Shown: in pieces, positions 43,738-59,065 of the stretch
Numbering within the stretch: the stretch's first letter is position 1
Layout: each line of letters opens with the position of its first letter
Source: an uncultured Acidobacteriota bacterium
GTDB lineage: Bacteria; Acidobacteriota; Terriglobia; Terriglobales; Acidobacteriaceae
Assembly (NCBI GenBank): GCA_963849065.1
Contig: CAWKFM010000003.1
Location: 44,292-108,291 of the forward strand
Reading direction: 5' to 3'
Length of the DNA stretch: 64,000 nucleotides
Notes under the pieces: generated by a model
What the model saw: the letters and a program-made list of their open reading frames with translations, nothing else
Databases searched by the model: none
Told to the model about the DNA's origin: nothing
Program-made: the position numbers and the translations under genes

Positions 43738-43812
<75 letters not shown>

Positions 43813-43906: not shown

Positions 43907-43981
<75 letters not shown>

Positions 43982-44126: not shown

Positions 44127-45239
44127 TTAATTTTTGCGGGTTCCCTCACCTTGAGGTGCGAATTCGTCAGTATCCATGAGGGTTTGCTCATACTTCAGCA
44201 TCGCTTGCCGCTTGTGTTCAGCCGTGGGGTGGACATACCGCTGGACGATCCGGATGGAGCTGTGGCCGAGGATTGCCGCCAGCGTAGCCAGATCGACCCC
44301 AGCTTGGGCAAGTCTGGTTGCAAAGGTATGACGGAAGTCGTAGAGCACGAAATCGAGAGCCTTGAGGCCCTTCTTCTTGTCCACCTTGATGGCAGCATCG
44401 TGCCCCCGATTGAGACGCACGATGTGCTTTCCTGGCTTTGTAGGGGATGGAAATATCCAAGGCGAGTCCTTCTTCTTGGGGTTCTTTTCCATGCGACGGG
44501 CAAGGATCGACTTGCTCTCAGCCGTCAGGTCGAGCGTCCGCCTCGCCGCCTTGGATTTTCCTTGCCTGATATGGAGCTGTCCCCGTTCGAGGTCTATGTC
44601 TGCCTTGCCGAGGGACAGGACCTCCTCCGGACGCATACCCTGATTCCGCATCAGCCTCGCCAAATCCCAGAGATTCTTGTTTTTCGCGGCTCGCAGGAAG
44701 TAGTCCTTCTCTTCCGCTGCGGTTATTACGTGCATCCTGACCGCATCAGCATCAGACGGAATCTTGACGTTGCGAACGGGATTCTCTCGATGCCACCGTT
44801 GCTTGATTGCATATCGGAAGAACTTCGACAGTGCGTGAAGGTCATGCCGCAGAGTGATGTCGCGAACTTCATGCTCAGTGACTCGCCACGCCTTAAACGC
44901 TTCTACCCTGCCCTCATGAATCAGCGACACCGACTCCCTGCCAAAGAACATCTTTAGGCTCGTGAAGCTGGTCTCGATTCTCAGGAAGCTATTGGGGTGC
45001 GACCTGTGCTCCACCTTCACCCAGTCCAAGAAATCAGTGGCGGCGTCACTGAATTCGCGTACGACCATGTGCCGGGACGGATTTCGTCCCTCAGCCAAGG
45101 CAATGCGATGCTCAGCCTCGAGTTGCTTCGCTCGCGTCTCGTTTTGTTTCGTGGCGGCCAAGTCTGTCTTTCCGTTGTACTCCTTGCCTGCTACCTTGAA
45201 GCGGTAACTCCACTTCCCGCATCGCTTTCTCAGCGGCAT
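44127..45239 (-). CDS. int: tyrosine-type site-specific integrase
   Basis: C-terminal catalytic region (YDFRHTFATRLAQAG, LGHSSIRIVQRYVH) and an N-terminal SAM-like domain. ATG 45239 (GTG 45242 also in frame). Confidence 0.9.
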   Translation of the reverse strand: MPLRKRCGKWSYRFKVAGKEYNGKTDLAATKQNETRAKQLEAEHRIALAEGRNPSRHMVVREFSDAATDFLDWVKVEHRSHPNSFLRIETSFTSLKMFFGRESVSLIHEGRVEAFKAWRVTEHEVRDITLRHDLHALSKFFRYAIKQRWHRENPVRNVKIPSDADAVRMHVITAAEEKDYFLRAAKNKNLWDLARLMRNQGMRPEEVLSLGKADIDLERGQLHIRQGKSKAARRTLDLTAESKSILARRMEKNPKKKDSPWIFPSPTKPGKHIVRLNRGHDAAIKVDKKKGLKALDFVLYDFRHTFATRLAQAGVDLATLAAILGHSSIRIVQRYVHPTAEHKRQAMLKYEQTLMDTDEFAPQGEGTRKN

Positions 45240-45552
45240 CACTTGTCTCCTGTAGTCTCGTTTCCAGCCATGCGTCCACCCGATCTTTCGGATACCAGAT
45301 TCGTCGCCCCACCTTGAGGTAGGCGGGGCCCCTCCGCTGGCATCTCCAATCTGCTAGAGTCGCTGGCGATAAGCCCAAGTTCTGTGCCAGTTCCTCAGGC
45401 GAGATCAAACTATCAGGCAACACGAATAGACCTCGACCCAGTTTCCCCGCACCGGATGGCGGCTTTATGTTGAGCGGCTCAGAGGGACCGAACCTCGTTT
45501 CCATTGGTGGTGCCAACGACGCACCTACGACTGCTCCGCATCTGTGGTTCAC
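45112..45552 (-). CDS. xis: excisionase/AlpA-like helix-turn-helix DNA-binding protein
   Basis: ISPEELAQNLGLSPATLADWRCQRRGPAYLKVGRRIWYPKDRVDAWLE. Alternative start at 45504. The 3' end overlaps int by about 130 nt in another frame. Confidence 0.7.
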   Translation of the reverse strand: MNHRCGAVVGASLAPPMETRFGPSEPLNIKPPSGAGKLGRGLFVLPDSLISPEELAQNLGLSPATLADWRCQRRGPAYLKVGRRIWYPKDRVDAWLETRLQETSDAAEKAMREVELPLQGSRQGVQRKDRLGRHETKRDASEATRG

Positions 45553-51200: not shown

Positions 51201-51578
51201 AGAAGCGCAGAAGGCAGGGTCACAGAGGTAGCAGCGTTTCTGTTCGGTCGCAGCGGCCTTCAGCAGCAAAGGGAGAGCGTAAAGGTGCTTAGGTCAGTAC
51301 TCACCAGAGTTCGGCGAGACGTTCATCAGCCTCTAGCTAGTACGTCGAACTGGAACAAATGGAACATTTCCATAATCGTTGCAATGTGGATTTTCGCTTT
51401 TACGAAGTGGGCCGCGCACTTCCTGGTGAAGCCTAGCGAAATTGAACCGGAGCTAGAACGACTTTCAACTGACGCACGTCTCGTTGCCCTCGTCAGGCCG
51501 GTAATCGACTGGCAGTCAGACCGAGGTGTAGAGCCAGGCGCGCTTGCACAGTTTATAGAAGAAGTGGGGGCAATCTGA
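48294..51578 (+). CDS. large hypothetical protein (1094 aa) with a central MIT_C/PLD-fold-like module
   Basis: ATG follows GGAGAAG. The motif pair QVIIFDPFF ... GTLHDRYFLIVG resembles the xDPYx...HDRxI pair of the MITD1 C-terminal PLD-like domain (from memory). The large flanking N- and C-terminal regions are unassigned. Confidence 0.7.
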   Translation: MALSLDDLVKDGRLERLFSKHCRDCALQLWVLQIKSDNGIENRLLYGRLLPYNYSNNTWSAAEDDHFESVGEHKAQIIRLSLYIKSTGTEALLKHLSEGHAVSRISEDLKLTLSPKLAERIGTTTLSSHLVYRPVAYLLNRDSRDRTAPLSPHGGAGAFSASLTPTDKIALLRIGSDCDEALATFIVKQLDFDTGLDFGDRDLGRLGDLELLVFPTLDDSERELLSVGWKVKPRVLAVKLNPIQLPRYDRFHVRLSVFNDSQLVHSSIATVECVEGREFECEFEVPEQLRTVVDETEVEIHGSSSINDDRTCDLCCRWRVGYVREITVNGHVNGRGGGSVRLGWLEKVTKSAAASKRLQAAQTINQGGTGFSTHVGDRKADPWVPINRGVRSLFARVHPPQSDGRFFERLSEGSGLGRLEFVEWVKALLVRHQNHQVIIFDPFFEDAGIGLVVPNAGSHGDYIVFTSLPKPATQEASTRINNLLASCEQLKPLMRGIRLRVYGLKYGTLHDRYFLIVGQDGLPTAGFHLSNSIQKANENYPLLITPIPPDVLLKVNKYASKLLTQAFEAFSSTEADTSRVQLLFDSKAALATSPKRIEPLRFLDKGVAGDVLAGWTGEQSLRSLEGDALREKMRDLGLLNGESLVLKEAPGLKGCVDQQAGNFTNFGAKWDVLGEILANSHAGNTIHAVELSAETDFLTFLAEFLSGSFGRVHNDEVDAPIAHVASTYFKDAIETLLAASHQPEHFFHPVKYAVLSWSEFFAVQILWHHAPAALLSMTEAQAATVPEDSRQSDAVKLSLLSQIVSEIALGAQFGLAGLQRDRLICSPNGLLKWMGLNSLESQLQKPNGVREVVQYTASFSHRERIQVLGWMTQHSAGRQNGETIYRGLIDSLHEVLPRALTAEDADLLVDSMRGHMRALGWGEPWLYRDVISPLFVDGRVSADDLCRIWVKELLAYLEQALRDETGIFKRSAEGRVTEVAAFLFGRSGLQQQRESVKVLRSVLTRVRRDVHQPLASTSNWNKWNISIIVAMWIFAFTKWAAHFLVKPSEIEPELERLSTDARLVALVRPVIDWQSDRGVEPGALAQFIEEVGAI

Positions 51579-51599
51579 ATCGAACGCGTGTTGGGTTGG

Positions 51600-52826
51600 C
51601 TATGCGGCAGCCATGGGAATCACCTCACCGAACGGTGCCGGATGATCCTTGGTGGCCGCCCATAGGACTGGATGGTTCGGTGCGGCGTCTGGAAAGGAGC
51701 CCTCAAGGTCGGTGAAGACCACGAGCGCCTGCGGCTGGATCGAATGCTCCTCGATGTATTCAAAACAGGGGCAGAAGCTGGTCCCACCGCCGCCTACTGG
51801 TTCGAGCGTAATCGGCTCGCCCTGTTCGAAGACGGCGGCGTTATGGACCCTGGTGTCGAAGTAGAGGACATGCACCCGCTGGGGCCTCCGCTCCGAGATG
51901 ATGGAGTTCAGTTCATCCTGGAAAAGCCCGAGCTGGCGGCGGTTGATCGAGCCGGAGCAGTCCACGCCGACCACGATTTCACCCACGCCATCCTTGCGAA
52001 TGCTTGGCAGGTACAGGCCTGAGGCAATGTGGCGCCGGTTGGGAGACGACCAGGAGTAGTCCTCGGGGATTGCCGCGGCGAATGAATTCCGGAGTGCGGC
52101 CCGCCAGTCCACGGTTGCCCGATCCGCCGCCTCCACGGCACGGCGCATGCCGCCGGGAGCTTTGCCAGCCATGCGAGCGACCAATTCGGCCTGTTCAACA
52201 GCTCCGGTCCAGCTCATCTGCTGCTTCTCGATCTGGTCGCTGGTCGCCGACGCGCCTTCCTTGTCGGGGTTGGGCGCATCGATGACCTGGCCAAAACCGC
52301 CGTCCGTCACTGGAACCTTGTGCGCTGGAGCCCCTTCGTCTCCCTGGGCCGAAGGATCTCCGGACCCGGAATTCGTGGAGCCGTCGCCACTGCCGCCGGC
52401 AGCGTCGCCGTCTTTGTCCTCGGCGATCAAGTTGTAGATCCGCTCTGCGCTCAGGTTCCGAAATGCCGGATCATAGAGTGCACCGGCAGGGAGAGCGAGG
52501 TTTGCATCCCGAACGAGCGGGTTGATGGCGTAGTCGCAGGCGACGTTCCAGCGTTTTGCCGAACGCGTTCCCCGCCGGGTATGGTGTTGCAGTGCCGGAT
52601 GCATGACTTCGTGCGCCAAGCAGCCAAGCAGCTCCGGCGGCGTCAGTTTCGCCACGAATTCAGGGTTATAGAACAGGGAGACGCCATCGGTCGCCATGGT
52701 GTCGATCGATGGTGTCTCCACGTCCTTGAGCCGCAGAATCAGAACCCCAAAGAATGGGAAATCGAGCAGCAGTTTTGTCCGGCCTTGCTTGAGCCGCACG
52801 GCTGGGGAGAGTGTTCTTGCAGTCAT
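51600..52826 (-). CDS. VWA-domain protein with N-terminal putative metallopeptidase domain (DUF2201-like)
   Basis: HEVMHPALQHH (HExxH), VACDYAINP, and VWA MIDAS-like VGVDCSGSI. Alternative start at 52913. Confidence 0.75.
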   Translation of the reverse strand: MTARTLSPAVRLKQGRTKLLLDFPFFGVLILRLKDVETPSIDTMATDGVSLFYNPEFVAKLTPPELLGCLAHEVMHPALQHHTRRGTRSAKRWNVACDYAINPLVRDANLALPAGALYDPAFRNLSAERIYNLIAEDKDGDAAGGSGDGSTNSGSGDPSAQGDEGAPAHKVPVTDGGFGQVIDAPNPDKEGASATSDQIEKQQMSWTGAVEQAELVARMAGKAPGGMRRAVEAADRATVDWRAALRNSFAAAIPEDYSWSSPNRRHIASGLYLPSIRKDGVGEIVVGVDCSGSINRRQLGLFQDELNSIISERRPQRVHVLYFDTRVHNAAVFEQGEPITLEPVGGGGTSFCPCFEYIEEHSIQPQALVVFTDLEGSFPDAAPNHPVLWAATKDHPAPFGEVIPMAAA

Positions 52827-53099
52827 AAGTTGGCCCCGTGTGGTTGCTTCAGTTCTGGCAATGCGCTTGCCATTCTGATTCGTATTTGGTTGGTGATGTC
52901 TGGGATACAACAAAAGTGGACTTCCAAATCATTGGCGGGCTGTAGTCTATTCGTGCGAACAGTAAATCACGCGGTCCCAGCGAGTAGCTTCCTGTTTTTG
53001 CCCGTCTTAGCAGAACTGCTCACACTAATGTGATTTTGTGTAATTCCTTTTTGTCGTTGCAGAGTATTATTATTTTTTCCAAAAAAGTGATAGGGAGTC

Positions 53100-54923
53100 A
53101 TGATTGAACATCTTAGTGTGAGCCGTGCAGCCTATTTCTACAGGCGCAAGAAGCGTTTCTCAAATGTCGCGATCGACACGCTTTTTAAGACGCTGCGGTC
53201 GAATGCCAGTACGCCTTCAAGGAACTTATTCCGGGTCGATCGCGTTGCGTTCAGGAACTCGAGATATTCTGCAATATGCTTTTCGTTCGAGCGTTCTCCC
53301 GCATTCCTCGACAACGAAGCCGAAGTTATTGAGTGTATCTTCGGGTTTTTACTGATCGTGGAGAAAGGCGATTTCGTAGCCGTTCTTAAGTCAGGTCTCG
53401 ATCTCCCCTCGGCCTTCAAGTCTAATTATCTCGACAAGGTCGGCAGCGAGCGGGTCGAGCGCGCCATCGCCCGACATGATGCGGTCTTCGAGAAGCTGCG
53501 ACTTAAGAATATGTCTACTTCGAAGCTCGCGCTGCGCTCCAAGACGCTTGAGGCCACTGATCTGGTAAATGCGGTGGCGACGTCAAGCGCCAGCCGCTTC
53601 GCGCCGCAGGGCTACAGTGTGCGGCGGTCCGATGGTACCTATTCGGCGACGCCTAGTACGGGACGTATCTCTATCCGCGCTGACCGGGCAGGCTACGAGG
53701 AGATTGTACGTTGGGCCAGCGAGGTTATGGATTTGCTCGCAGCCGACAGTGGAGAGATCTCGGCCTTCATCCGAAACTTCGCTCGACCGATCGACCTGTC
53801 TGCGATCCCCAGTGGCGTGAGACCAACTTATGTTGCAATCGACGTGCCGAGTCTTGCCAGCGTTTTGTTGGAGGCGGGGGAACGTACCGTCCGGCTTGTT
53901 CGGCAAAATCAAAGCAGCTTCGTCGAAATGACCAAGGTCGAGATCGATCACATTCTCGAGGAACTCGACCGAAGCTTCCCCATACAGCCCGAGCAGATAC
54001 AGAACCATATTGTGCATCCGGACGACCAAGCTCGAATCGGCTTGGTTAAAGTGGGCAAGACGCGAATCTCCCTGCCAAGCTTCACGCTGCCCCTGTTAAC
54101 GAGTATTTTCGTTGAAAATGCCGCCCTTCCGGTTGGGGCCGACCCCGACCGCAGGCCACTCACCCGCTATCTCGATCGCGAAGACCTTTTCACCGTCCTC
54201 TTCAACGATTTCGCGCTCGCTTACATTGATGGCTCCTTGTACCGGGACGAGGCGCTCCTCGGCGGAGGCATGGACTTTCTTCGCCATCTACAAGCGGCGC
54301 TTCCGCTTGCCCAAACGACCAGCGAGAAAGGAGAATTCGCTGCTGGCCAAGAAGCATTTGACGATACGTCGGTATTTCGGGCCATCGTCGACGACATTGC
54401 ACGCGACGCTGATGTGCTGCTGTGCGATGACCTTGGCGACGAGTGGGCAGACTTTATCGGTATCAGCACCGTGACTCGTCCTGTGATGGTTAGTTTCTAC
54501 CACGCCAAGCATGGGGAGAGATCGCTCAGCGCCTCAGCCTTTCATGATTCAGTGGGACAGGCAATTAAGAATCTCGGGCGCATGACGCTGCCATCTGAGG
54601 CCATGCCAGCCAAATATGCGTCTTGGGAGACGCCCTATCGCGGCGCCGGGGCAGTAACCGCAATCCCAAGAATGATACGCGGCGGTGGACGGTTAGAGAT
54701 TGAACATAAGATTCAGGAGGTACGTAGCGCGCCAGACCTGCTAAAACGGGTCTTTATTGTCACTTCGTCGCTGAGCCGAGCGCAGGTCGAGTACGCCTTC
54801 ACAGCCGCTGCTGCGGGCGAGCCACTTTCGGCACACTTCGTCCAGCTTTATTGGTTGCTCATGTCCTACTTCTCTGCTTGCACTGAGATCGGTGCGATTG
54901 GCTATGTTGTGTGTCAGCCTTGA
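53100..54923 (+). CDS. hypothetical protein (607 aa) with a PD-(D/E)xK-like C-terminal signature
   Basis: ATG follows AGGGAG in an AT-rich divergent promoter region. VLLCDDLGDEWADFIGIS-x12-VSFYHAKHG fits D...(E/H)xK nuclease cores. The overall architecture recalls the 'sporadically distributed' TIGR04141/DUF6119 family (memory only). Confidence 0.65.
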   Translation: MIEHLSVSRAAYFYRRKKRFSNVAIDTLFKTLRSNASTPSRNLFRVDRVAFRNSRYSAICFSFERSPAFLDNEAEVIECIFGFLLIVEKGDFVAVLKSGLDLPSAFKSNYLDKVGSERVERAIARHDAVFEKLRLKNMSTSKLALRSKTLEATDLVNAVATSSASRFAPQGYSVRRSDGTYSATPSTGRISIRADRAGYEEIVRWASEVMDLLAADSGEISAFIRNFARPIDLSAIPSGVRPTYVAIDVPSLASVLLEAGERTVRLVRQNQSSFVEMTKVEIDHILEELDRSFPIQPEQIQNHIVHPDDQARIGLVKVGKTRISLPSFTLPLLTSIFVENAALPVGADPDRRPLTRYLDREDLFTVLFNDFALAYIDGSLYRDEALLGGGMDFLRHLQAALPLAQTTSEKGEFAAGQEAFDDTSVFRAIVDDIARDADVLLCDDLGDEWADFIGISTVTRPVMVSFYHAKHGERSLSASAFHDSVGQAIKNLGRMTLPSEAMPAKYASWETPYRGAGAVTAIPRMIRGGGRLEIEHKIQEVRSAPDLLKRVFIVTSSLSRAQVEYAFTAAAAGEPLSAHFVQLYWLLMSYFSACTEIGAIGYVVCQP

Positions 54924-55027
54924 AGACCAAGAGTCGAACTGTCCTGACGTAGCATTCCAAAAGTCACGGTTCTTTCGAGCACGTGACTAGCTGGGAGTGG
55001 ATCTAAACGCCGTTGGAACAGCGCATC

Positions 55028-55049
55028 GGACGAGGGTGTCGCCTCGTCC
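55028..55049 (+). terminator. hairpin downstream of the 607-aa gene
   Basis: GGACGAGG-gtgtcg-CCTCGTCC, with no T-tract. Confidence 0.3.
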
Positions 55050-55357
55050 ACGGGACGACGACTTTATACTTCTGAGATACTGCAATCGCGCGACTGGACG
55101 TGTCTATGCTGACCATACTTCACCCGTTTGAACCAAGACGACACTGCAAATATGCGAATAAACCTCGGCAGGAAGTCGGGCATGAATGATAGAGAATCTT
55201 GTCAATGGCTGGAAACGCCCCATTCGAGAACAATTTGCCATTGCCTGGCGGACAGATTCGCCGCACAATCGAAGTAAGATCCACAAATCTGGTCGGTAGG
55301 GAATAACAAGGACCACATGCGCTGGGCCGTAGGCGGCTGGAGAAACAACGATGCTCA

Positions 55358-56716
55358 ATGCGCACCCGTAGGAGCGAATGCGTGAGCCTTTACAACGACC
55401 AACAAGAGTTCCTGCGCAGCTTACGCGATCTGATCGAGAACCGTCATCGCAAGTTCGCGGGTGCGCAGTTTAGAGTTGCGTTCGTCCGCGATGAAAAAGG
55501 TGTAAACCAATTCCTCACCGGATGCGCACTGTTGCTTGAAAATCAAGCAATCTCCCGTCCTGCACAGGACTATAGGTACATTGTATTGGCGGAGGAGTGG
55601 GTAGAGGGTGACGAGGCAGTCCTGCACAGGATCGAACAGATTGTCAGCGGCACAGGAGCAATCGCTAATGCAGCGGTGGGCCGCACATTTACGCACGCCA
55701 CGCTGACGCGCAAGTTTGATGCGGCTATACGGGGATGGGGAGGTTGGGAATTCTCTAGTCGCGTGGACCACACAGCCCAGGAGCGGGAGACTTACCTGCG
55801 TCAAGAACCATTGCTTGCGTTTGGGCTGAGGCCCTATAACTCTGCTTTCGAGGCCATCCTAAGATGGGTTTTCGAGGAAAAGAACACCGATTTCTATCCG
55901 CCTGGAAACAGAGCTCCGAACCAAGGCGAGTTTCTTACACTGGTCGCCGACACGCGTGCTCGGATCGTGAGGGCTGAGTGGCTGCCAGGTCTCGTCAACG
56001 CCGAAGTTGAACTGGGAGTCGATCCAAGAGAGGTTGAGGCTCAGTTTCTATTTGCAGGGGCGGAAGACGATACCCGTACACTGAACACGGGTTCGCTCTC
56101 CTTAAAGTGTGAAGTCCCGGAAGGCACGCGCACCACGAGGCTCATGCTGGTCCATTCGACCAATGACTGTATCTCTAAGATCCTACTGAATGGAGAGTAC
56201 GACACATACGGACCTCAGCCGTTGGCTCTCAGTGCAATCAGAAAAGCAGAGCTCGACCTGAAAGAAGGTGAAAACGACCATGTGGAATATAAACCATGGG
56301 TTTCGCCAAAGTCTCCGGAGAAGGAAGCAGAGCTCGTCGAAACAATCATCGCATTTGCCAACACTGGTGGTGGACGGCTTTATGTTGGAGCCGCGGATAG
56401 CGGCAACCCACTCGGTGACACGGCTCTGTCGAAAGCGTTCAAGGTTGAATCCGATATGGCCGCGATCCAGCAGGCTGAGAGAATCAAGAGCCTCAAACGC
56501 GAGAAGATAAAGCCAGTGCCCCCGGTCCGAGTGGAACTGATCACGGTTTTTGGCGAGCGCCTAGTTCTAGTTGAAGTCGAGCGCGGGAGCAGGCGACCAT
56601 ATTCAACATTTGAAAACAAAGTATTCGTCCGCAAGGGCGGGAGTAACAGGCTCGCGGATCCACACTCGGAGCTTCCCGCCCTCAGCCCACAGTCTCTGCT
56701 GCCGGATGGCTCCTGA
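55358..56716 (+). CDS. hypothetical protein (452 aa) with a C-terminal AlbA_2 (Schlafen-like, 'divergent AAA') domain
   Basis: EGENDHVEYKPW...ETIIAFANTGGGRLYVGA...RPYS...VFVRKGGSN matches the AlbA_2 pattern. The ~300-aa N-terminal region is unassigned. Confidence 0.65.
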   Translation: MRTRRSECVSLYNDQQEFLRSLRDLIENRHRKFAGAQFRVAFVRDEKGVNQFLTGCALLLENQAISRPAQDYRYIVLAEEWVEGDEAVLHRIEQIVSGTGAIANAAVGRTFTHATLTRKFDAAIRGWGGWEFSSRVDHTAQERETYLRQEPLLAFGLRPYNSAFEAILRWVFEEKNTDFYPPGNRAPNQGEFLTLVADTRARIVRAEWLPGLVNAEVELGVDPREVEAQFLFAGAEDDTRTLNTGSLSLKCEVPEGTRTTRLMLVHSTNDCISKILLNGEYDTYGPQPLALSAIRKAELDLKEGENDHVEYKPWVSPKSPEKEAELVETIIAFANTGGGRLYVGAADSGNPLGDTALSKAFKVESDMAAIQQAERIKSLKREKIKPVPPVRVELITVFGERLVLVEVERGSRRPYSTFENKVFVRKGGSNRLADPHSELPALSPQSLLPDGS

Positions 56717-56880
56717 TTTGGAGGATGTGTGAAGGAATATAGCGTCGATTTCACCAGCTCTCCCTCTGGTCGGAAGCCGATCACTGTGGCAATAGGATTG
56801 GTTTCCAATGCACTGTTGAAACTCGATACAGTGGTTGTTGGATTGTATTCGGTCGATTGAAGCACTCGGTACGGATCTGC

Positions 56881-56942
56881 AACCATAAAATGGCCGCTAA
56901 TGATTACAGCCATAAATTGGCCGTTCTGGCCAACTTATGGTT
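56881..56942. repeat. three copies of a ~14-nt motif (two direct, one inverted) between convergent genes
   Basis: AACCATAAAATGGCC (56881-95), GCCATAAATTGGCC (56909-22), and GGCCAACTTATGGTT (56928-42), which is the reverse complement of AACCATAAGTTGGCC. Confidence 0.6.
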
Positions 56943-56964
56943 GTAGTGTCAGGGGAAAGATTTG

Positions 56965-57996
56965 TCATGCGATTAGCTCCATGTAATCCGACATTCTCAC
57001 CAGAATTTGATCCACTCCGGGTGCTGGCGCGGGTTGGGGTGCCGGATCGGTTGGCTTCGGATCGGGCATGTGGACCGCCATGGCCGGAACCTCCGCTGTT
57101 CCGGAGACATGGCCGATGGCCGCAGATTCATCCAAGGCGTCATAGCCGCGATGCTTCATCGCGTGCTTGATCTTGGCTGCGAGTTCGTTCGCGATTCCCG
57201 CCGCCCGAGTGCGCGCCGCGGGATGCTGGGCGAGGTCCTGGCGGGTAAACCTGGAGAGCCGGGAGTTTGTCTCCTGCGCGAGCGCCGTTAGTTCTTCGTC
57301 GTTGGTTACGTTCAACCGTGGAACGAGATCGGCGATCTCGGTTACGTTGCGGAGAGTGGACGTATGCAAACGGGCTTTCGGCCGCTCCAATTGCGCGGCG
57401 AGGTGGGCGACCGCCTGTATGAGGCGCGACCACAACTCGGACGTGGCGCGCGTGAGGGACTGCTTCACCTGCTGATCGATCTCGCGGGCGACGCGAGCCT
57501 TCTCCTCCGCGCCAAGCGTGACGCGGAAATCCTCGCCACAGGGAATGGGGAGAATGTCGGTCGTCAGGTCGAACTTCTCAGTGAGCTGCGACCAGTCCGG
57601 GTAGTCGCTATCGCGGTACAGAAGGCCAAGGCTGTTGCGGGCCTGTTCGCGATAGGTTGGATAGGCGTCGAGAAACTCTCGCACCAACTGTTCGAATGCC
57701 GTCTTGAACTCGCTCATCTGGCTGGTGAACTCGAAATAGAGGTGGGACGGGAGCAAGCGGTAGCCCTCGTCCGACCAGGGCAGAGTCACTTTGTAGAAGT
57801 ACTGGCGGATCTGGCCTGCGAGGTTGCGCAGTTCCTCCAGCTTCTCGGCCTGGTCGAGCAGATGCTTGTTGTAGCGGCCGGCGTTCGAGTTTGCTTCGTG
57901 GGACTGCGCTACCTCCTCAGACACCCGCCTGTCGAACTTGCGTGCGCTCCACATCGTGATATGAAGACAGATCAGCATTGCTTTGTCGGAAATCAT
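56965..57996 (-). CDS. DUF3150-like protein
   Basis: N-terminus MISDKAMLICLHITMWSARKFDRR resembles the DUF3150 'WSGRK' start. It lies directly downstream of the AAA gene. ATG 57996 lies within ORF 56965..58230. Confidence 0.55.
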   Translation of the reverse strand: MISDKAMLICLHITMWSARKFDRRVSEEVAQSHEANSNAGRYNKHLLDQAEKLEELRNLAGQIRQYFYKVTLPWSDEGYRLLPSHLYFEFTSQMSEFKTAFEQLVREFLDAYPTYREQARNSLGLLYRDSDYPDWSQLTEKFDLTTDILPIPCGEDFRVTLGAEEKARVAREIDQQVKQSLTRATSELWSRLIQAVAHLAAQLERPKARLHTSTLRNVTEIADLVPRLNVTNDEELTALAQETNSRLSRFTRQDLAQHPAARTRAAGIANELAAKIKHAMKHRGYDALDESAAIGHVSGTAEVPAMAVHMPDPKPTDPAPQPAPAPGVDQILVRMSDYMELIA

Positions 57997-58039
57997 TTCG
58001 TTTTCAAGCCTCCAGACGTAGCCCTGGATCGGTCCAGAG

Positions 58040-59050
58040 CTACGCGAGTAAATCGCTGTGAGTGATGGCGAATTGGGTGAATTCGGGGGTGGTCGCAATG
58101 GCCGGGTCACGGAGCAGAGCATCGCGCATGGACAGGACCTGCAGCTCATCCGGAAGACGCTCGAGGTAGAGCTTCGCCTTCGCAATCGAGCTATCAGTGA
58201 TGCGGCGGCCGAGTGCGGTGGCAATTGCAATCTGGGCCGACGGATCGCTGGGCAAGGGCGCGCCGGTTGGGTTCAGGAGAATCTCGTCAATCGAAGGCAG
58301 GGCGTGAAAAAGGTTAAGGAAGCCGATGAACTCCGCGGCTACGCCGTCACCCACTGCGCCTTGAATAAGGTGCATGAGCAGCATCTCGTAGACGTCCGCG
58401 GTGACGTTGGCCTTCCGGGCGTCAATTCCGTCCATCGCCCTGGATACCATTTCCCAGGAGCGCGGCGTCGGCCAGGCGTTGACACCCGACCGCACGGCCG
58501 AGTCGTGCAACAACTCCGTCCGGAAGCGAAGAAATGCGATGATTTCCGGCCTGATCCCTGCCTTGCCGGCCCAGATGCACCACTCGCCGAGATCCGGTTC
58601 CAGCGTGAGATGCAGGAAGCGGTTGAGCAAAGGGCGCGGCATGGAATAGCTGACGCCACGCTCGGAAGCGGGATTGCCCGCGGCAAGCACCGACCATCCA
58701 TCGGGGAGCCGATAGTCGCCAAGCGCACGATCGAGAACGAGCTGATAGCAGGCGGCCTGCGTCATCGGTGGCGCGGAGGTCAATTCATCGAGAAAGAGTA
58801 TGCCCTCGCCGCCTGTGGGGAGGAAATTCGGCGTGATCCATTCCGTGCGGTCGTCCTTGATGCGCGGCAGACCACGGAAGTCGACGGGATCGAGCTGGAC
58901 GGCGCGTACATCAATAAAGTCGCGCTTCAACTGCTGCGCGACCTGCTTAACGAGTTGGGATTTGCCGACGCCACAGGCGCCCCAGATATGGAGCGCAACG
59001 TTTTGAGGGACTGCGGTGATAAGCGCTTCAACAAGGTGCGAAGGTTTCAT
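58040..59050 (-). CDS. MoxR/CbbQ-like AAA+ ATPase (AAA_5)
   Basis: Walker A GACGVGKS, Walker B ILFLDELT, and AAGNP followed by the sensor region. Confidence 0.85.
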   Translation of the reverse strand: MKPSHLVEALITAVPQNVALHIWGACGVGKSQLVKQVAQQLKRDFIDVRAVQLDPVDFRGLPRIKDDRTEWITPNFLPTGGEGILFLDELTSAPPMTQAACYQLVLDRALGDYRLPDGWSVLAAGNPASERGVSYSMPRPLLNRFLHLTLEPDLGEWCIWAGKAGIRPEIIAFLRFRTELLHDSAVRSGVNAWPTPRSWEMVSRAMDGIDARKANVTADVYEMLLMHLIQGAVGDGVAAEFIGFLNLFHALPSIDEILLNPTGAPLPSDPSAQIAIATALGRRITDSSIAKAKLYLERLPDELQVLSMRDALLRDPAIATTPEFTQFAITHSDLLA

Positions 59051-59065
59051 GAGTATTGTCCTTTG

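Follow-up and report, generated by a model that had tools for sequence, protein, structure and literature searches.

An acidobacterial Schlafen protein whose N-terminal module recurs on other effector types, a candidate portable phage sensor

In the window, a 64,000-nucleotide stretch of DNA from an uncultured Acidobacteriota bacterium, we found a gene that joins a C-terminal Schlafen nuclease domain to an N-terminal module of about 280 residues. Because the nuclease is joined to a module that other soil bacteria attach to different immune effectors, we read the gene, with a probability of about 70%, as an anti-phage system of prokaryotic Schlafen (pSlfn) type that works on its own, with sensor and nuclease in one protein. 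More broadly, we give an even chance to the proposal that the module is a new portable phage-sensing domain, defining a group of single-protein immune receptors in soil bacteria with at least six exchangeable effector types (Schlafen RNase, cytidine deaminase, TIR, Ser/Thr kinase, PNP nucleosidase and GGDEF/Cas10-palm cyclase) and one shared class of viral cue.

The open reading frame first placed at 55358..56716 on the plus strand is real and open, but ATG 55358 is probably not its start. GTG 55382 is the likelier start codon, because an AGGAG ribosome-binding site lies 7 nt upstream (55370-55374), the copy in the protein database (P0002) has 444 aa, and homologues align from the residue encoded by this GTG. 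The true start of the Schlafen gene is therefore probably GTG 55382, giving a 444-aa protein. Residue numbers below refer to this protein, except those of the PF04326 match, which follow the 452-aa reading. The gene and its parts are as follows.

55382..56716, plus strand: the pSlfn gene, 444 aa from the GTG start (reading from ATG 55358 adds 8 aa)
55382..55936, plus strand: module domain 1 (residues 1-185), predicted alpha/beta (beta-alpha-beta3-alpha-beta2) followed by a long loop region with one helix
55937..56206, plus strand: module domain 2 (residues ~186-275), predicted Ig/FN3-like beta-sandwich
56207..56266, plus strand: linker with a helix (residues 281-295, from DSSP of the model), the point of effector exchange in relatives
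56267..56680, plus strand: Schlafen (AlbA_2) nuclease domain (residues 296-433; PF04326, Foldseek, and family profile against SLFN14)
56270..56293, plus strand: catalytic motif E297-x4-E302-x-K304, aligned to E209/E214/K216 of SLFN11
56396..56398, plus strand: D339, the third acidic residue, equivalent to SLFN11 D252 in the HMM alignment to SLFN11/SLFN14

A 177-aa frame on the minus strand (56380-56913) overlaps the 3' third of the gene and begins within the GGCCAAnTTATGG motif cluster (56877-56946); it is probably spurious.

The original prediction assigned the C-terminal part to the AlbA_2/Schlafen domain, and this assignment is right. The sequence motifs it quoted are all present in the frame, and the Pfam family PF04326 (SLFN_AlbA_2) matches residues 305-433 of the 452-aa reading with an E value of 4.8e-19 and 69.5 bits against a cut-off of 25.3. 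The motif reads E297-NDHV-E302-Y-K304; E297, E302 and K304 are invariant in the 16 family members found first, and the Ex4(E/D)xK pattern is present in 87 of 87 full-length representatives. In P0008 and P0012 the position of D339 is occupied by N, with D one position further on. At the sequence level, a family profile matched SLFN14 (E 2.5e-4) and SLFN11, with E values up to 4e-3, and in these alignments E297, E302, K304 and D339 fall on SLFN11 E209, E214, K216 and D252, respectively. The full-length AlphaFold2 model has a mean pLDDT of 84.8, and a Foldseek search, which had been proposed as a check, matched its last ~150 residues to solved Schlafen-fold structures: DIP2311 (3lmm, E 4e-7), SLFN5 (3e-5), SLFN12 (3.7e-5), SLFN11 (1e-4) and SLFN13 (1.4e-4), as well as SLFN14 and the SAMD9 tRNase domain. 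The C-terminal domain is thus a Schlafen nuclease domain with an intact catalytic signature.

PF04326 is the sole Pfam match of the protein, and both an HTH and a GHKL ATPase (HATPase_c_4, PF13749) are absent, so the protein is not an AlbA_2 protein of the regulator type. The possibility raised earlier that its homologues would be typical HTH-fused transcription regulators is not borne out by the full-length homologues, which are not of that type; HTH-type AlbA_2 regulators match only the last 30% of the query, and weakly (E ~1e-4). Neither NCBIfam nor PADLOC has a family for the protein (in PADLOC, none at E<=0.01, and none for the representative P0033), and a homodimer prediction with two copies gave a score of 0.01, which speaks neither for nor against oligomerisation.

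The N-terminal region had been described as lacking any recognisable motif, and this was confirmed in nine family members, which gave no Pfam match at E<=1. A profile search of the module against PDB sequences yielded nothing below E 0.15, nothing usable came from the ESM Atlas when residues 1-185 served as the query, and a BFVD search returned generic FN3/Ig or tail-protein matches only, with TM ~0.2. Folded alone from 15 sequences, the module reached a pLDDT of 89.7 and a pTM of 0.85, and it is confidently predicted to consist of an alpha/beta domain followed by an Ig/FN3-like beta-sandwich. Domain 1 carries the conserved stretches FLTG, QDYG, EEWV, GWxGW and PLLAxGLRPY and may have a known fold or a small-molecule-binding role. 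We also considered domain 1 as a degenerate second Schlafen lobe, but this idea is unsupported: hhalign detected no similarity between the module and the Schlafen domain of the same protein (probability 0.1%). Only Y64, P151, A198, W200, V245 and P246 are invariant across the family within the module. Since these residues are structural and not catalytic, we infer that a binding scaffold fits better than an enzyme.

We searched 1.84 billion cluster representatives exhaustively with a profile HMM built from the module only. This search returned 218 representatives at E<=1e-3 and 137 at E<=1e-10, compared with the ~16 full-length relatives found by an earlier word-indexed search. Architectures were scored for the best 150 of the 218; a Schlafen domain was detected by its own HMM in 102 of these 150, 41 were short fragments, and the remaining 7 carried other effectors. 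The module precedes a cytidine/dCMP deaminase in P0044, P0046 and P0049, a TIR domain of the SpbK/ThsB-like kind in P0053, a Ser/Thr kinase resembling PD-T4-6/mad6 in P0166, and a GGDEF/Cas10-palm domain in P0139; in P0146 it is combined with a PNP_UDP_1 nucleosidase, like the 'PN-superfamily' effector of CBASS and PDC-M60C. P0146 is a metagenomic protein of 1144 aa with three parts, a PDC-M36A-like region (2-228), the module (528-769) and the nucleosidase (800-943), so the module can also be internal, within larger candidate defence proteins. By BLASTP, the module of the window protein matches that of the deaminase form with 31% identity over 284 aa (E 1.5e-41), the TIR form at E 3e-27, the PNP form at E 3e-10, the GGDEF form at E 1e-8 and the kinase form at E 1e-3. 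Two of the non-Schlafen fusion proteins recur on 70 and 17 contigs, and such repeated recovery shows that these fusions are not assembly chimeras.

The deaminase and TIR proteins P0044 and P0053 share 49% identity over residues 1-283 and none after, which amounts to a clean exchange of effectors where the Schlafen domain begins in the window protein, at residue ~280. Quick maximum-likelihood trees of the module group the deaminase and TIR forms together (SH-aLRT 99). Their clade has a Schlafen form as its sister (98) and is embedded in a set of Schlafen forms to which the window protein also belongs. The kinase, PNP and GGDEF forms fall elsewhere among Schlafen forms on long branches, and their exact place is unsure. 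The mean pairwise identity is 23% for the module versus 39% for the nuclease, and in ~100% of 3828 pairs the nuclease was better conserved than the module; the module therefore diverges faster than the nuclease. A faster-diverging sensor has likewise been reported for pSlfn5 (PMC13056530).

The distribution of the gene is rare, patchy and island-borne. Of 21 other genomes of the genus, 3 encode a full-length relative, and among 185,579 species genomes there were three matches, all Acidobacteriota (Terriglobia) MAGs, while none of 400 other genomes sampled across the phylum contained the module. The nearest relative (P0003/P0192) shares 83% identity. All sightings of the family come from soil or peat metagenomes and from MAGs of Acidobacteriota. 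A tblastn search of plasmid and phage collections with the module gave no match, and no relative was present in viral contigs. One genome of the genus (G014) encodes two distant whole-protein paralogues with 23-25% identity (L096 and L097), whose open frames are 447 and 441 aa long. Partial matches, or matches spread over two or three frames, were seen for several metagenomic homologues (L085 577-1847, L089 10001-11273, L087/L088 and L091/L092); these may be frameshifted or decaying copies, or assembly errors.

Within the window, GC content drops from ~0.63 to ~0.54 (0.53-0.56) between 44 and 57 kb, and this low-GC stretch starts after two tRNA genes and a tyrosine integrase.

43738-43809 and 43907-43978: two tRNA genes
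44127-45242: tyrosine integrase, at the GC drop
54924..55381, plus strand: intergenic region with two hairpins (54962-54988, 55028-55049), 3' of the PDC-S71 gene
56877..56946, no strand assigned: structured region that contains I3 and I4 (inverted repeats) and three copies of GGCCAAnTTATGG, with fold z -4.0 and metagenome loose ends at 56928 and 52808

An integrated island probably starts, on its left side, at this tRNA/integrase site and includes at least Juno, PDC-S71, the Schlafen gene and an AAA/VWA module. The genes encountered there encode a DUF5677 protein, a VPA1262-family protein (1077 bits), PDC-S71, the Schlafen protein and the AAA/DUF3150-like/VWA module, with a type I RM methylase further on. 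The VPA1262 family is Juno, for which phage blocking has been shown (bioRxiv 10.64898/2026.08.01.741415). Known defence genes lie within 10 kb of the Schlafen gene: PDC-S71 0.4 kb upstream, Juno/VPA1262 3.8 kb upstream and the type I RM methylase 5.4 kb downstream.

Between the DUF3150-like and VWA genes sits a low-GC insert of 4.1 kb that consists of PDC-S71 and the Schlafen gene and is bracketed by four copies of the 13-nt sequence GGCCAAnTTATGG, one at 52824-52836 and the others within 56877-56946. The latter three (one inverted and two direct, in the minus-strand reading) stand just past the stop of the DUF3150-like gene, and one copy contains the ATG (52826) of the DUF2201/VWA gene. These copies may mark the insertion junction; a 12-mer match alone would be expected ~0.5 times by chance. 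The region 56877..56946 is a probable right junction of the inserted cassette and a probable bidirectional terminator. Four soil metagenome runs from a single study covered the insert (53036-56839) at a depth of about 8-8.5 against 7.8 for the chromosome flank, whereas in these runs the AAA/DUF3150-like/VWA genes (51451-53035 and 56840-59058) had a summed contig depth of 20-65, with many variants of 90-99% identity. One soil contig (run X2, loose end 52808) runs from the start of the VWA gene into the sequence of 56961-56983 at the end of the DUF3150-like gene, and therefore represents a copy of the AAA/VWA module without the insert.

We then compared 13 proteins of the window neighbourhood by tblastn with 15 homologue loci (3 genomes and 12 metagenome contigs). 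The Schlafen gene alone was matched; a relative of PDC-S71 or of any other window neighbour occurred at none of the 15 loci. The homologue neighbours differ at every locus and include uvrB, methylmalonyl-CoA mutase, an SF1 helicase, GmrSD, Lon, RHS toxins, an E1-like ThiF/DUF6791 protein, ftsQAZ, murC and a type IIG RM enzyme, so no partner is conserved. The gene acts like a solitary cassette inserted at many different sites, on occasion among conflict genes. At two loci the homologues adjoin large RHS-repeat proteins (L082, 2561-7846 and 16169-17356; L086, 1664-5530), and the former also has a DUF6791 and ThiF (E1-like) gene; such surroundings are typical of polymorphic toxins or conflict genes and do not make up a classical defence island.

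Such neighbourhoods bear on another explanation, in which the gene is a conflict module not aimed at phages, either an addiction or abortive toxin of a mobile element or a competition weapon or immunity factor, and the N-terminal module senses a cue from a plasmid, an ICE or a rival. The RHS toxin genes beside the L082 and L086 homologues, the position of the window copy inside an MGE-type AAA/VWA module on an integrated island, and the use of the same effector types in interbacterial toxins all agree with it. However, the protein has no secretion signal and no PAAR/RHS-type delivery domain, a small immunity gene is absent next to it, the cytoplasmic architecture of sensor plus effector and the set of effectors match anti-phage systems, and the validated relatives act on phages. 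We therefore consider this explanation unlikely, though the strongest of the alternatives.

The upstream 607-aa gene is the PADLOC candidate PDC-S71 (E 9e-119), and the two genes could in principle have been acquired together and form one working system, with the Schlafen protein as its effector or its sensor. They are adjacent, on the same strand and both of low GC, and they form one 4.1-kb block inserted in the AAA/VWA module, with a depth (~8.5) that equals the chromosome flank (7.8) against 20-65 for the module genes, and with one contig that lacks the block. Against this stand the spacing, the catalogue entry of PDC-S71 as a single-gene candidate and its absence from all 15 homologue loci. 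The gap after the stop of the 607-aa gene (54923) does measure 434 nt, as first stated, when counted to ATG 55358, and 458 nt to GTG 55382; the two hairpins reported in it are also real, with stems at 54962-54988 and 55028-55049, and the region has a fold z-score of -3.4 against shuffles, better than all 200 shuffles. These two stable hairpins probably end the PDC-S71 transcript, in which case transcription of the Schlafen gene would start from a separate promoter; no sigma-70-like promoter was recognised upstream of it on the plus strand, and no Rfam family was found within 54924..55381. The original prediction had left the choice between an independent single-gene system and a separately regulated partner of the 607-aa gene and suggested that homologues be checked for co-occurrence with the 607-aa family. 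Co-occurrence was seen at 0 of 15 loci, on which ground we reject PDC-S71 as the partner and favour the single-gene option; we accordingly hold a two-gene system to be very improbable.

Least probable of all is a role outside immunity, with the AlbA_2 protein acting as a regulator that binds nucleic acids or as a housekeeping factor in RNA processing. The old annotation 'Putative DNA-binding domain' on one JGI homologue, the homologues among housekeeping genes and the ~30% of pSlfn genes that are not defence-linked (PMC13056530) might suggest such a role. Against it, the protein lacks an HTH and HATPase_c_4, its catalytic Ex4ExK motif is strictly conserved, it occurs rarely and patchily (3/21 genomes of the genus, 0/400 of the phylum sample), and a regulator role makes no sense for a module that is also fused to TIR, deaminase, kinase and PNP effectors.

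Returning to the single-protein anti-phage system, we compared the gene with known Schlafen proteins. Bacterial Schlafens fused to varied sensors are already known: the pSlfn survey, which established that pSlfn proteins protect against phages, defines classes pSlfn1-55 and 'unannotated fusions', the 'unannotated' clusters numbering 558, names Ex4(E/D)xK as the conserved active site and reports that 17% of bacterial Schlafen fusions have unannotated partners (Perez Taboada et al., Nat Microbiol 2026, PMC13056530). The window protein shows the PF04326 match, the Ex4(E/D)xK motif, the predicted Schlafen fold, the fusion to an accessory domain and defence genes within 10 kb, and by these features the gene is placed among the pSlfn anti-phage proteins. 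In RorSlfn5, the fused Ig-like domain acts as the sensor and the protein cleaves tRNA (PMC13056530). Both proteins are encoded by a single gene in a defence island and have a single AlbA_2 nuclease with Ex4(E/D)xK and a fused non-catalytic part that includes an Ig-like beta-sandwich, and in both the sensor part is more variable than the nuclease. However, judged from the published description of RorSlfn5, the order is reversed: there the Schlafen domain is N-terminal and the Ig-like sensor C-terminal, whereas here the predicted sandwich (~186-275) precedes the Schlafen domain (296-433), which differs from the pSlfn5 architecture, and the window protein has an extra alpha/beta domain of ~185 aa. 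The survey contains no description of the N-terminal module or its reuse on other effectors (PMC13056530). What appears new in the literature searched is the module itself and the fact that it also serves deaminase, TIR, kinase, PNP and GGDEF outputs, neither of which we found described.

Cash, the Csx15-Schlafen ancillary tRNase of type III CRISPR systems, also combines a single-lobe Schlafen and an E-(E/D)-K centre with a fused sensor; its E-D-K triad holds Mg2+ at the tRNA scissile phosphate, and its tRNA cleavage is switched on by rearrangement of the oligomer (PMC13462974). The Cash sensor, in contrast, is the Rossmann-like, cA4-binding Csx15 and is CRISPR-linked; for the window Schlafen protein, neither a cyclic-nucleotide-binding fold nor a CRISPR neighbour was found. 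SLFN11, 12, 13 and 14 share the nuclease fold and the catalytic residues (E209/E214/K216/D252 in SLFN11), but eukaryotic Schlafens have a two-lobed horseshoe core with a linker (SWADL) and, in group III, a helicase, whereas the window protein has one AlbA_2 lobe and an unrelated putative sensor. The COG2865-type 'RecG-like transcriptional regulators' (AlbA_2 + HATPase_c_4 + HTH) have AlbA_2 in common with it, and DIP2311 (3lmm) is the best structural match to its C-terminal domain, but the window protein lacks their GHKL ATPase and HTH. One sensing module with alternative effectors (nuclease, TIR, deaminase, kinase, nucleosidase) also recalls the logic of Shedu, CapRel-type and Avs-type systems; unlike these, the family lacks a STAND NTPase and a DUF4263 nuclease core and is unrelated to them in sequence, and its module belongs to no Pfam family.

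According to the above-described comparisons, the system may work as follows. The N-terminal 280-residue module would be the sensor and would probably keep the nuclease inactive. It would bind a component made by the phage, most likely a protein, and this binding would free the nuclease, perhaps through a changed oligomeric state. The Schlafen domain, a putative metal-dependent endoribonuclease, would then most likely cut tRNA, by analogy with RorSlfn5, Cash and human SLFN11/13, so that translation would halt and the phage yield would fall. Reading the protein as a phage-triggered tRNase follows the analogy with RorSlfn5, Cash and SLFN11; the tRNA substrate, the phage-protein trigger, the activation through oligomerisation and the protection itself are likewise inferred from such relatives. 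Several observations count against the anti-phage reading: in the pSlfn survey ~30% of the genes were not near defence genes and 2 of 7 tested systems protected E. coli (PMC13056530), several homologues stand beside housekeeping genes (uvrB, ftsQAZ, murC), PADLOC has no model for the family, and no upstream promoter was recognised. For other homologues the adjacent genes encode GmrSD, RHS toxins, an E1-like enzyme or a type IIG RM enzyme.

Bacterial Schlafens were recognised as antiviral tRNases only in 2025-26. The family described here offers a natural experiment in which one putative sensor module is combined with six effector chemistries at a sharp exchange point at residue ~280, and if the module senses a phage component, chimeras could reveal how one sensor activates unrelated enzymes. 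For the window, our analysis supports the Schlafen gene as an independent system and not a partner of PDC-S71. The family would add an Acidobacteriota and soil branch to an immune repertoire known almost solely from Enterobacteria.
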